The translations under genes and the position numbers were made by a program. The notes beneath the pieces are model-generated. The model saw only the letters and a program-made list of their open reading frames with translations. It was not told the DNA's origin and searched no databases. Positions 17,997-24,172 of a stretch of DNA of 64,000 bases are shown piece by piece; position 1 is the first letter of the stretch, and each line of letters begins with the position of its first letter. This DNA is from an uncultured Fidelibacterota bacterium (lineage in GTDB: Bacteria > Fidelibacterota > Marinisomatia > Marinisomatales > UBA1611). The stretch spans positions 13,141 through 77,140 of the forward strand of contig CACLYL010000001.1 in NCBI GenBank assembly GCA_902611135.1, given 5' to 3'.

Positions 17997-18080
17997 AATG
18001 ATTGATCTCTTCTAGGGTTTAGTCTACTGTATTTATTTTATAGACTTGGATTAATTATATCAATAATCTCAACATTGTAA

Positions 18081-18800
18081 TTAAACTTTGGTTTTCCCTT
18101 TGAAACTAATTGGTTTGACTTGGAAGTTATATTCATCTACCTTTGGGCCTGGCCGCTAGCCAGCTTTATCAATTGGCTAGGTTCCTCCTTGAGCGCAAAT
18201 GGAGTTTTTTTGCGCAATCTTTCTGTACATTCTATTCAAAAAGTATCCAATTTTTTAAAAATAAGTATGTGTTTTACTATCCCACACACAACAGTTCCTT
18301 GGTTCCTTATCTCCATGACTATATGTTCTATTCATAACGTTATAACCTTGTGCTTTATTATTAAAATGAATGTAATTTTTTTTAAAAACTTTGTCGTCTG
18401 ATAAAAGTTTATATTCATATTCCCCATAGGAATATATATTTTAGATAGAAATTACATCTCCTTCAGGGCTCCTTTTTGGAAATAAAAACTTTATATAAAA
18501 TAGTCTTATATTATTAACCACAATTAGATTGCATTCGCTATAAAGATATCTATTTGATTTGGTAGAAGAATCGTACTTAAATGCTTGAATTATAAAAGTT
18601 CTATGCCAGATATGCATGATGATTGGCAAATTTAAAACGGTTCTATATTGCTCATTCCATCTAATAAGACTTGGTGTTTCCCATACAATAGGATATATAA
18701 TCAGTATATCATTTTCTTTTAAGTTTTCGATAAATATTAAGCAAGCAAAAAAAATAATATATAAATTTACAGAGTATTCTTTAACAAAAATTTGTGCACC
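18081..18800 (-). pseudogene. decayed gene of unknown family: a 240-codon single frame with 4 internal in-frame stops and no canonical start
   Basis: My own minus-strand translation gives one frame from 18800 to the terminal TAA at 18081-18083. It is interrupted only by TAA 18441-18443, TAA 18255-18257, TAG 18177-18179 and TAG 18156-18158. There is no ATG or GTG in the first 57 codons. The plus-strand ORFs listed here look like shadow ORFs. Confidence 0.4.
18156..18215. repeat. two adjacent perfect 7-bp-stem hairpins in a locally GC-rich island
   Basis: Hairpin 1: CTAGCCA (18156-18162) pairs with TGGCTAG (18174-18180), 11-nt loop. Hairpin 2: GCGCAAA (18193-18199) pairs with TTTGCGC (18209-18215), 9-nt loop. 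Both arms of hairpin 1 supply the two TAG stops of the minus-strand frame. Confidence 0.8.
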
Positions 18801-18834
18801 TTAGTGTATCTACCTTACTATTTAAGATAAAAAA

Positions 18835-20356: not shown

Positions 20357-20431
20357 TACTTGAATGTTTAATAATAATAAGCTAACATTCTCGGATTTTT
20401 ATTTAAGTAATTAAACCACAAACTACACTTT

Positions 20432-20436
20432 GGAGG
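20432..20436 (+). promoter_or_regulatory. Shine-Dalgarno sequence of rpsU
   Basis: GGAGG lies 8 nt upstream of GTG 20445. Confidence 0.6.
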
Positions 20437-20444
20437 TGATTAAG

Positions 20445-20699
20445 GTGGTTGAAGTTCAAGTCAAAGAAAAAGAGTCCTTTGAGAGAGCTCTTCGGCGTTT
20501 TAAGAAAATGTGGGAGAGAGCAGGTGTTTTGAGAGAAATCCGTTCTCGTGCTTTTTATGAAAAACCCAGCGACACTAAACGCGAAGCGAGGAAGAAGACT
20601 GTTAGACGTGTTAAAAGACTTGCTAGAATAGAGGCCTTAAGGAATAACCCTAGAGCAAATCGTATTCGACGTAAAAAGCCTCAGAAAAAACGATATTAA
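20445..20699 (+). CDS. rpsU: 30S ribosomal protein S21 with extended basic C-terminal tail
   Basis: [41 protein letters not shown] is an S21 core. I place the start at GTG 20445 on the basis of the SD, rather than at the track's TTG 20430. The tail is [31 protein letters not shown]. Confidence 0.88.
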
Positions 20700-20790: not shown

Positions 20791-22128
20791 ATGTTAATAA
20801 GAAGCCTTTCCGGTGTCAGAGGTTATGTAAATTCTCACTTTACACCTGAAATAAGTATTAATTATGCTAGAGCATTAAACGAAATGCTCCCAAAGGGCGT
20901 AATCATGGCAGGTAGAGATAGCCGGCCATCAGGTGAGTTTATTATAATTGAAATGATTAATGAATTTAATCGATTGGGACGAACGGTAATTAATTGCAAT
21001 ATAGTTCCCACACCAACAATACAATTTATGGTTAAAAATACAGAGGCTGTTGGTGGGTTTATAGTGACTGCAAGTCATAATCCAATTGAGTGGAATGGAT
21101 TAAAGTTTGTTCGATCAGATAGTACCTTTTTTCATCCAAGTGAATGTGAACGTTTATTCAAGATTGTTGATTTGAACGAGGACTATGGATCATCAGTTGA
21201 AAAAGGACTCCATTGGCCTGAAAATAATGCTATTCAAAAACATATAATTTCATGTGTTGGTTTAAAGACTATCAATTTAAATCGCATTAGAAAAAAGAAG
21301 TTTAAAATCGTTGTTGACGCTGTAAACGGAGCTGGGTCTGTAGCTTTGCCTCAATTATTAGACTCTTTAGGTTGCGATGTTATACCTCTTTATTGTGAAC
21401 CTAATGGGGAATTTATTCGAGGAACTGAGCCATTACCAACTAACTTAGTTGATTTATGTAATGCTGTAAAAAAACATCAAGCAGATGCTGGGTTTGCAAT
21501 TGACCCTGATGCAGATCGTTTAGCTTTAGTAGATGAAAAAGGCACTCCCTTGGGCGAGGAATACACATTAGTTATTGCAGCAGAAGGATATTTAGAGGAA
21601 ATTGAAGATCCTGAAAAATTTGTTGTAAACTTATCTACGTCACTAGCTTTAGAGAAACTCGCAGAAACAAAAGGAAGTGCTGTTGAGAGATCTGCTGTGG
21701 GCGAGATAAATGTTGTAAACAAAATGAATGAATTAGGGTCAAATTTAGGTGGAGAAGGCAATGGAGGTGTAATTCTTAGAGAAAGCCATCTAGGTCGAGA
21801 TTCTTTAGTAGGAGCAGCTATGGTTTTAAATAGGATGTCTCAAGGGAATCAAAAATTAAGTCAAATCTTTAATTCGTTGCCTCAGTATCAAATTGTAAAA
21901 GATAAAATAAAGTTAGAAGGTATTAATTCAGATGAGTTGATTGTTAAAATAAGTAAAAAGTTTAAAAATGCACAAAAAAATACTATAGATGGAATCAAAT
22001 TTATTTGGGAGGACAGGTGGGTACACCTTAGAAAATCAAACACCGAACCGATATTGAGAATTTATGCAGAGGCACCAGATAAAATTCAAGCAGAAGAATT
22101 AGTTAAAGAGGTAAAAAGTTTAATTTAA
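20791..22128 (+). CDS. glmM: phosphoglucosamine mutase (Bacteroidota-type phosphohexomutase)
   Basis: N-terminal IRSLSGVRG resembles the Bacteroidota GlmM SISGIRG motif. Active-site TASHNP, metal loop DPDADR, and C-terminal RKSNTEPILRIYAE. Confidence 0.8.
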   Translation: MLIRSLSGVRGYVNSHFTPEISINYARALNEMLPKGVIMAGRDSRPSGEFIIIEMINEFNRLGRTVINCNIVPTPTIQFMVKNTEAVGGFIVTASHNPIEWNGLKFVRSDSTFFHPSECERLFKIVDLNEDYGSSVEKGLHWPENNAIQKHIISCVGLKTINLNRIRKKKFKIVVDAVNGAGSVALPQLLDSLGCDVIPLYCEPNGEFIRGTEPLPTNLVDLCNAVKKHQADAGFAIDPDADRLALVDEKGTPLGEEYTLVIAAEGYLEEIEDPEKFVVNLSTSLALEKLAETKGSAVERSAVGEINVVNKMNELGSNLGGEGNGGVILRESHLGRDSLVGAAMVLNRMSQGNQKLSQIFNSLPQYQIVKDKIKLEGINSDELIVKISKKFKNAQKNTIDGIKFIWEDRWVHLRKSNTEPILRIYAEAPDKIQAEELVKEVKSLI

Positions 22129-22773
22129 ATGAGGGATATAGCAAAATACATTGATCATACTAATTTGAGACCCTATTTAACAAAGAAAGATATTCAAAGG
22201 ATTTGCAAGGAAGCAAGTCAATATAATTTTGCATCGGTGTGTATTAATCCAATTCATGTTCCTTCAGCCACAAAATATTTAAAAGATTCTTTTTCGGAAG
22301 TAAGTACGGTTATCGCGTTTCCATTGGGTGCAATTTCAACTGAAATAAAATATGCGGAAGCCATGGATGCAATTGATCAGGGAGCAGAAGAATTAGATAT
22401 GGTGATAAATATTGGATACTTAAAGGAGGGAAAGAACAATCAACTAGCAGATGAAATCACAAAAATAGTTAAAGCATCAGAAGATATATGCTTAAAAGTA
22501 ATTATTGAAACCTGTTTGCTGAATACAGAAGAAAAAATTCGTATTTCGAAAAGTGTAAAGGAATCAGGAGCTGATTATATAAAAACCTCTACAGGTTTTT
22601 CACTAAAAGGAGCCGATGCTAAGGATGTTAAAATTATTAGATAAACACTTGGTGATAGTACAGGAATTAAAGCAAGTGGAGGCATAAAATCTTTATTAGA
22701 TTTAAATAAAATGCTAAATGCGGGCGTAAACAGAATAGGCACCAGTTCAGGGATAATTATATTAAATGAATGA
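22129..22773 (+). pseudogene. deoC: deoxyribose-phosphate aldolase interrupted by one in-frame TAA
   Basis: The ORF 22129-22644 (DHTNLRP..., DYIKTSTGF containing the Schiff-base Lys) stops at TAA 22642-22644. The same frame continues for 42 codons: TLGDSTGIKASGGIKSLLDLNKMLNAGVNRIGTSSGIIILNE, ending at TGA 22771-22773. That is the conserved DERA C-terminus. The stop sits where homologues read DVKLMRETVG. Confidence 0.85.
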
Positions 22774-24172
22774 AAAAGTTCTAATAAAACGTAAAGCAGA
22801 GGTAGAATTAAAGATCGAATCACTTGCTTATGGAGGGATGGGAATTGCAAAAAAGGAAAACTTTGTAATTTTTGTGAAAAATGCAATCCCAGGTCAAACT
22901 GTAATTGCAAGAATTTATAAAAAGAAAAAAGGATATGCTGAAGCCAGAGCCTTAAAGATTTTAGTTGAATCTCCAAATGTTGTAAAACCTAAGTGTAATC
23001 ATTTTTACATTTGTAGTAAAATTCAAAATCTATCCTACAAAGAGCAATTGAAAGAAAAAGGGAATCAAGTTATAGATGCATTTCAAAGATTAGGAGGATT
23101 TAAAGATTTTAAGTTAAATAATGTTGTAAAGGGGAATCCAATTTTTAATTACCGCAATAAAATGGAGTTTACATTTTCACCTCACAGGTGGGTTTTAGAT
23201 TCAGAACCAGAAGATGCGAGTAAATCTTTTGCACTTGGGCTGCATATTCCAGGAAGGTATGATAAAATACTTGATATAAATAACTGTTACATACAGCCAG
23301 AAATAGGGAATAAAATTTTAAAGGTTGCGAGAGAGGTCTGTTTATCAAACCCTAAACTAAAGCCATATGATCCAAAGACGCACATTGGGTTTTTACGTTA
23401 TTTAACGCTTAGATATGGATTGAAAACAGGCCAACTCATGGTGAATATCGTAACTGCGTATGATGATATCAATAAACTTTCACCATTAATTGATAGTTTA
23501 CTAGATAAGTTCCCTGAGATTACATCTATGGTAAATAATGTTAATACCAGAAAAGCAGATATTGCGTTTGGAGAATTTGAGAATCTCTTATTTGGCAAGC
23601 CATATATTGAAGAAAAATTAGGAGAATTAACGTTTGAAATTTCAGCAAATTCATTCTTTCAAACGAATACTTTACAAGGAGAATTATTGTACAATGAAGT
23701 ATTAAAGGCAGCTAATTTGAAAGGGGATGAAATTATTTTTGACTTGTATTGCGGGGCAGGAAGTATCGCTCTTTTCTTAGCACATAAAGCCAAAGAAGTA
23801 TATGGTTTTGAAATTATTAGATCTTCTTTGGAGAATGCAGAGAAAAATGCAGAGAAAAATGAAATTAAAAACACATCTTTCTTAAAAGCAAATCTAGATA
23901 CCTTCTTTAAATCAGGCCAACTTCCCCGTAAAGTCCCGAAGCCAAATGTAGTAATCGTCGATCCACCAAGAGCGGGAATGCATCCAGATATGGCTAATTA
24001 TTTATATAAATTCAAAGCTGAAAAAATTGTATATGTGTCTTGTAACCCTACTACCCAAGCAAGAGATGCTAAGTTATTAGTAGAAAAAGGTTATAAAATT
24101 AAAAGTGCTGTTATGGTTGATATGTTTCCGCATACGCCACATATTGAAACGGTGGTTTTATTTTCTAAGTAG
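22766..24172 (+). CDS. rlmD: 23S rRNA (uracil-C5)-methyltransferase, RlmD/RumA family (TRAM plus SAM methyltransferase domains)
   Basis: N-terminal TRAM-like AYGGMGIAK. SAM motif DLYCGAGSIALFLA, then VDPPRAGM and VSCNPTT. Only 3 of the 4 RumA Fe-S cysteines are recognisable. Confidence 0.85.
   Translation: MNEKVLIKRKAEVELKIESLAYGGMGIAKKENFVIFVKNAIPGQTVIARIYKKKKGYAEARALKILVESPNVVKPKCNHFYICSKIQNLSYKEQLKEKGNQVIDAFQRLGGFKDFKLNNVVKGNPIFNYRNKMEFTFSPHRWVLDSEPEDASKSFALGLHIPGRYDKILDINNCYIQPEIGNKILKVAREVCLSNPKLKPYDPKTHIGFLRYLTLRYGLKTGQLMVNIVTAYDDINKLSPLIDSLLDKFPEITSMVNNVNTRKADIAFGEFENLLFGKPYIEEKLGELTFEISANSFFQTNTLQGELLYNEVLKAANLKGDEIIFDLYCGAGSIALFLAHKAKEVYGFEIIRSSLENAEKNAEKNEIKNTSFLKANLDTFFKSGQLPRKVPKPNVVIVDPPRAGMHPDMANYLYKFKAEKIVYVSCNPTTQARDAKLLVEKGYKIKSAVMVDMFPHTPHIETVVLFSK

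Follow-up and report, generated by a model that had tools for sequence, protein, structure and literature searches.

The window (the whole 64-kb stretch of DNA that was analysed) has a GC content of 31% and is densely packed with about 51 genes, including LPS genes and genes of the DUF4159/DUF4175 and DUF4835 families, a content suggestive of a Gram-negative marine lineage, possibly an FCB-like one. Fifty of these genes are uninterrupted, and the remaining one is a deoC gene for deoxyribose-5-phosphate aldolase (DERA), located on the forward strand at 22129-22773. Its frame starts with ATG at 22129 and runs for 171 codons to an in-frame TAA at 22642-22644 (codon 172), past which translation of the window stays open for 42 sense codons until a TGA at 22771-22773. 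The coordinates and the peptide strings agree with those of the first-pass annotation, which had described one in-frame TAA in this gene. The features of the locus are listed below.

20791..22128, + strand: PGM/PMM-family phospho-sugar mutase of the archaeal GlmM type; intact, abuts deoC (TAA then ATG); used as a control gene
22129..22644, + strand: deoC, very probably a pseudogene, part 1; codons 1-171 plus the premature TAA, from the ORF list and translation
22642..22644, + strand: premature ochre codon TAA, codon 172 of deoC; the mutated base is T 22642, and orthologues have AAA (Lys) or GAA (Glu)
22645..22773, + strand: deoC, very probably a pseudogene, part 2; former codons 173-214 plus the original TGA stop
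22766..24172, + strand: rlmD; intact, TIGR00479 at 371.9 bits, dN/dS 0.09; used as the purifying-selection control

The local gene order is rsmA, rpsU (S21), the mutase, deoC and rlmD, and on the opposite strand nearby are a TP_0789-like gene, two FtsX permeases, an ABC ATPase and an MMPL transporter. The ORF for ribosomal protein S21 (20430-20699, + strand) is 89 aa long when read from a TTG, and most calls in the sister loci (see below) are 84 aa long; the true start is probably a downstream ATG. The protein has zero amino acid differences from most sisters (dN/dS about 0). The mutase scored 456 bits against TIGR03990 (cut-off 439), and its dN/dS is 0.12-0.21. Among PDB entries, the phospho-sugar mutase 1wqa matches best (E = 7.7e-72), and a lower-ranked match is 9ix8, whose chain is named “Phosphopentomutase” (E = 6.6e-36). 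In Thermococcus kodakarensis, a phosphohexomutase homologue acts as a phosphopentomutase (PMC11641776). Judged from its sequence, the intact mutase could be a pathway partner of DERA. No other nucleoside-catabolism genes were found within the 64-kb window.

The rlmD start codon (ATG 22766) overlaps the old deoC stop by 8 nt (ATGAATGA), and the same arrangement occurs in all sister loci. The first-pass annotation was right that rlmD overlaps the stop of the extended frame, but the overlap is not of the 4-nt ATGA type that it proposed. It had also read the retained overlap as a sign that deoC may be functional at present. This does not follow, because the overlap is ancestral synteny on which the start of rlmD itself depends, and so is uninformative about the current function of deoC.

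The repaired 214-aa deoC product scored 238.8 bits against the TIGR00126 deoC equivalog (cut-off 117.3), matched PF01791 and matched solved DERA structures with an E-value of 4e-61. The 171-aa fragment scored 190.9 bits against TIGR00126 and covered only profile positions 2-169 of 211. Alignment of the repaired product to E. coli K-12 DeoC placed the functional residues relative to the stop as follows.

E. coli D102: D90 here, before the stop
E. coli K167 (Schiff base): K152 here, before the stop
E. coli K201: K181 here, after the stop
E. coli G204-G205 (phosphate-binding loop): G184-G185 here, after the stop
E. coli R234 / G236 / S238: R202 / G204 / S206 here, after the stop; G236/S238 form a phosphate-binding loop

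The structural context was taken from an AlphaFold model (pLDDT 95.2) of P0001, the nearest intact orthologue, which aligns to the window product without gaps. The predicted fold is an eight-stranded TIM barrel with strands at residues 8-12, 36-39, 57-62, 88-92, 121-125, 150-152, 179-183 (beta7) and 202-205 (beta8). Codon 172 falls at the end of helix alpha6 in this model, and the stop removes beta7, alpha7, beta8 and alpha8. Thus part 2 of deoC had encoded beta7 with K181 and G184-G185, alpha7, beta8 with G204 and S206, and alpha8. The translated product retains the D102 and K167 equivalents and is without the K201 equivalent and the phosphate-binding loops; according to the model, it would also fall short of a complete (beta/alpha)8 barrel, as beta7 and beta8 lie beyond codon 172. 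Both the model and the alignment bear out what had been read from the letters, namely that the last quarter of the TIM barrel is cut off, with the Schiff-base Lys kept and the second catalytic Lys and the phosphate-binding loops lost.

Experiments have shown that catalysis by DERA depends critically on both Lys167 and Lys201 (review PMC6244999, citing Heine et al., 2001). From the alignment and this published mutagenesis (PMC6244999), we infer that the 171-residue fragment cannot be an active DERA, because it is without two of the eight beta-alpha units, the second catalytic Lys and the phosphate-binding loops. Such a six-strand fragment would be inactive and is probably unstable, and codons 173-214 would now go untranslated. 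By its sequence, the locus is DERA-derived, yet it does not encode a complete DERA.

Public metagenomes contain many deoC orthologues at 90-94% protein identity, all 214 aa long and uninterrupted. The first-pass annotation had called for a comparison of orthologues at codon 172, and the result is clear: a sense codon is present here in each of the 38 full-length sequences in the close clusters, which come from the same marine population (Lys in 33, Glu in 5). As codons for both residues are seen in orthologues, the proposed origin of the TAA by a single transversion from GAA or AAA also holds. None of the members of the close deoC clusters ends at residue 171, the 171-aa form is absent from the best 120 homologues, and the exact 171-aa product has no database record. 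The TAA allele is private to this genome. Database records likewise lack the exact products of the neighbouring mutase and rlmD, hence no strain-identical contig could be retrieved.

A scan of species-representative genomes (one per species, 185,579 species) gave a closest match to the repaired deoC product of 54% identity. Either the lineage is missing or masked in the representative collection, or its representative genomes are without deoC, and the latter would fit recurrent loss. A metagenome scan added one further close locus only (L093).

Syntenic sister DNA was available from Tara and JGI short-read contigs (L174-L177, L179, L180 and L093) and from a marine genome assembly, GCA_902606335.1 (L083). 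The L095 clade, at about 73% protein identity, served as the outgroup. Three long-read sister contigs (L081, 52 kb; L082, 1.42 Mb; L173, 388 kb), all pilon-polished contigs from ENA, are noisy; they were used where alignments were gap-free and were given zero weight for pseudogene status. In these three contigs, metG, the mutase gene, rlmD and the genes for the ABC ATPase and the MMPL transporter are split into several short or frameshifted gene calls, a pattern commonly left by uncorrected indels in long-read assemblies. Short members of the deoC clusters (P0013, P0165 and P0166) look like pseudogenes and should not be taken at face value, as such cases in long-read contigs are unreliable because of residual indel errors. 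On the short scaffold L179, deoC lies at 11-655 and rlmD at 648-1599, and the alignment of rlmD breaks into two segments (query 1-213 and 321-1011), pointing to a deletion or a misassembly.

The window shares 93-98% nucleotide identity with the sisters in every gene, deoC included. Nei-Gojobori estimates of dN/dS between the window and the sisters are 0.44-0.81 for deoC and 0-0.21 for ten flanking genes compared with the same sisters. Between sisters with distinct alleles, the dN/dS of deoC is 0.17-0.43; with values of up to 0.43 from sister to sister, deoC is weakly constrained across this clade.

We defined a private change as a site that differs in the window where all sisters agree. In deoC there are 11 non-synonymous and 2 synonymous private changes, a small set of 13, versus 56 and 116 in nine flanking genes pooled (Fisher p = 3.1e-4). 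The deoC ratio is consistent with the neutral expectation (0.786), and the pooled flanks are far from it. With polymorphisms shared with other alleles (R24 and I210 with P0014; T48 with P0008) and the ancestral P45 set aside, the stricter deoC count is 7:2. A high non-synonymous ratio alone is not proof of inactivation, because the intact allele L179/P0014, from a cluster of nine full-length members, itself has 9 non-synonymous and 2 synonymous private changes. Weak constraint on deoC seems to affect several lineages of this population.

The relaxation extends over both parts of the frame. Codons 1-171 have 6 non-synonymous and 2 synonymous private changes (p = 0.02 versus the flanks), and codons 173-214 have 5 and 0 (p = 0.004 versus the flanks), corresponding to a private dN of 0.015 before the stop versus 0.050 after it. 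In codons 173-214 the pN/pS is 1.84 between the window and the sisters, 0.35 between sisters and 0.17 between the sisters and the outgroup. A relative-rate test (binomial, outgroup L095) assigned 12-15 derived non-synonymous deoC changes to the window versus 1-4 to each of six of the seven sisters (p = 0.003-0.08). As controls, the synonymous changes in deoC are balanced, and the overlapping rlmD is balanced at 7:6 and 6:2.

Several of the private changes hit positions that hardly vary in the family. K57E replaces a residue that is Lys in 116 of 117 homologues, and A200V, adjoining the phosphate loop, replaces one that is Ala in all 117. I142S lies in a hydrophobic helix at a position that is always I, L or M in these 117 homologues, and I178T at one that is always hydrophobic. 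The window residues E57, S142, L159, L174, T178, L190 and V200 are each absent from the 38 population members.

The type of change switches abruptly at the boundary between the two overlapping genes. Of the last 12 private changes in deoC, 11 are non-synonymous, and the next nine, in rlmD (22780-23062), are all synonymous (Fisher p = 3e-5). Thus deoC evolves in a neutral-like manner on this lineage, and its neighbours are constrained. Two marks of a pseudogene were found: the frame is disrupted relative to intact orthologues (TAA versus K/E in 38 of 38), and, by private counts, relative rate and the rlmD boundary, the relaxed constraint is specific to the disrupted copy.

The same counts bear on whether the stop is a sequencing or assembly error, in which case the true base at 22642 would be A or G and deoC would be intact and functional. 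An error would show up as just such a private single-base difference, and neither the TAA allele nor the 171-aa product was seen anywhere else, be it in database records, the close clusters or the best 120 homologues. The stop is, however, accompanied by 7-11 other private amino acid changes, and four of these, A200V among them, fall at near-invariant sites. The density of private substitutions in deoC (0.020 per bp) lies within the range of the flanks (0.007-0.032), and the transition/transversion counts, 8:5 in deoC versus 133:39 in the flanks, do not differ significantly (p = 0.19). An error patch is disfavoured because its density would be higher and its changes would ignore the reading frame, yet here the private changes turn purely synonymous where rlmD starts. 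A local patch of errors or of hypermutation was ruled out by the density, the spectrum and this frame-aware switch at the rlmD boundary. A lone base-call error is disfavoured because it would leave the downstream codons constrained; even with an erroneous TAA, deoC would still look unconstrained. Given also that the other 50 genes of the window are uninterrupted, we consider an error very unlikely.

Another explanation is that full-length DERA is still made because ribosomes read through the TAA or because it is suppressed, for instance by an ochre-suppressor tRNA whose gene lies elsewhere. The frame is open for 42 codons past the TAA, up to the ancestral stop that overlaps rlmD, and a suppressor tRNA could lie in the genome beyond the 64-kb window. 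Against this, the stop is not conserved, and the codons after it evolve at a neutral rate or faster (pN/pS 1.84; 5:0), and the invariant Ala200 is among the residues lost. Both release factors, RF1 and RF2, act on UAA, which leaks less than the other bacterial stop codons. Among the 51 genes of the window, 28 end in TAA, 13 in TGA and 10 in TAG, so that TAA is the commonest genuine terminator and a suppressor would be costly. The same usage rejects a codon reassignment, as all three codons end ordinary window genes. No tRNA genes, suppressor tRNA or tmRNA and zero matches to Rfam elements were found within the 64-kb window, and the RNA fold downstream of the deoC TAA is unremarkable (z = -1.16). 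Programmed recoding would show a stop conserved among orthologues and purifying selection downstream of it; here the stop is unconserved and the downstream selection is missing.

The first-pass annotation had raised the possibility that deoC is still functional via readthrough, and had named relaxed downstream constraint beforehand among the results that would speak against it. Relaxed constraint is what we found (pN/pS 1.84 versus 0.35; five non-synonymous changes and no synonymous ones; A200V), and readthrough that still supplies full-length DERA is extremely unlikely. Its other suggestion, that full-length deoC was functional until fairly recently, fits the data, as the frame is otherwise open and the deoC DNA is about 97% identical to that of intact sisters.

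Equally hard to sustain is the proposal that the 171-residue N-terminal fragment is itself a selected product, be it a truncated protein, a moonlighting one or half of a split enzyme. The fragment does retain D90 and the Schiff-base K152, and the non-synonymous excess is weaker before the stop than after it. But codons 1-171 are also relaxed relative to the flanks (6:2), with K57E at a near-invariant Lys and I142S in a hydrophobic helix, and the truncated form occurs in no relative. Neither folding nor catalysis is expected of a six-strand TIM-barrel fragment that lacks K201 and both phosphate loops (PMC6244999). As for a split enzyme, a sequence scan found no in-frame ATG, GTG or TTG between the TAA and M195, hence the second half would not be made separately and the split-gene idea was ruled out. 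We regard a selected fragment as highly improbable.

In combination, the results indicate that deoC in this genome is very probably a genuine, private nonsense pseudogene that has since been evolving without protein-level constraint, and that the remaining fragment would be inactive. A single G/A-to-T transversion at 22642 would have converted the Lys or Glu codon 172 into TAA, where ribosomes would now terminate. After the stop arose, deoC would have drifted without protein-level constraint, most visibly in its last 42 codons, and the neighbours, including the overlapping rlmD, remain under strong purifying selection. The frame has probably escaped deletion because the event is recent and because its 3′ end carries the start and upstream region of rlmD. 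Because changes are enriched downstream of the stop, the counts suggest that the nonsense mutation occurred early on the private branch, although 13 events do not fix the order of the stop and the missense changes. Gene loss in this compact marine genome (31% GC) would be caught here at its first step. The organism would be without DERA activity unless a second deoC copy lies elsewhere in the genome, of which 64 kb was seen.

Two less orthodox scenarios were considered. One, which is very improbable, is partial suppression of the TAA, by a tRNA or readthrough determinant encoded outside the window, which would give a low level of full-length DERA in which the unusual substitutions K57E, I142S, I178T and A200V are tolerated or even adaptive and do not reflect decay. 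The other, milder and more likely of the two, is repeated shedding of deoC in this marine lineage, which is suggested by the weak constraint on deoC across the clade and by the genome scan that returned nothing closer than 54%. If repeated shedding is true, the window may have captured genome streamlining at a rarely seen stage, its onset by a point mutation.

The window also contains a second, older case of gene decay, about 4 kb upstream of deoC. The gap between metG and tatD (17997-18834; 840 bp) has no ORF of more than 93 aa, and within it, at 18090-18752 on the - strand, a 556-aa gene carrying a PF09113 N-glycanase_C domain survives as an eroded remnant. An intact 556-aa gene is located at the same place in the sister contig L084. 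In tblastn searches with the 556-aa protein, the remnant matched amino acids 144-289 with 39% identity (E = 1.8e-30) and amino acids 8-88 with 33% identity (E = 1.3e-11), the remainder being deleted. The assembly GCA_902606335.1 has the remnant too (78% nucleotide identity over 695 bp), and L081 retains an even shorter piece of it. The very probable deoC pseudogene and the N-glycanase-like remnant suggest that gene loss continues in this compact marine genome, with a point mutation first inactivating a gene and erosion following.

For annotation, deoxyribose-5-phosphate aldolase activity, that is, the salvage of deoxynucleoside carbon to glyceraldehyde-3-P and acetaldehyde, should not be assigned to the genome despite a high-scoring deoC match. 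The analysis also provides a read-free, internally controlled way of separating a real nonsense pseudogene from a base-call error, in which lineage-specific synonymous and non-synonymous changes are compared for the whole gene, for each half separately and on either side of its border with an overlapping gene. The case opens no new biological question.

We compared the locus with three known systems. With class I DERA/DeoC (TIGR00126, PF01791; E. coli DeoC, PDB 1JCL; the short DERAs 5DBU and 3NGJ), it shares a repaired frame that is a full-length equivalog, in which D102, K167, K201, G204-G205 and G236/S238 are all alignable. It differs in that the product ends before beta7, leaving the Lys201 equivalent and the phosphate loops untranslated, and in carrying K57E and A200V, which are never or almost never seen in the family. 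With programmed readthrough or suppressor-tRNA recoding, the locus shares an in-frame stop followed by an open, homologous frame. Unlike in those systems, the deoC stop is unconserved, purifying selection is absent downstream, the codon is UAA, the main terminator, and no stimulatory RNA or suppressor tRNA was found within the window. The likeness to ordinary bacterial nonsense pseudogenes is much closer: one premature stop in an alignable frame, intact orthologues in close relatives, non-synonymous acceleration on the affected lineage only, and synteny kept with no deletion yet. There is no qualitative difference from these; what sets the present case apart is its setting in a compact, gene-dense marine genome, in which the 3′ end of deoC carries the start of the essential-looking rlmD. 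The phenomenon is known, a standard nonsense pseudogene of a well-known enzyme family, and only this instance is new.
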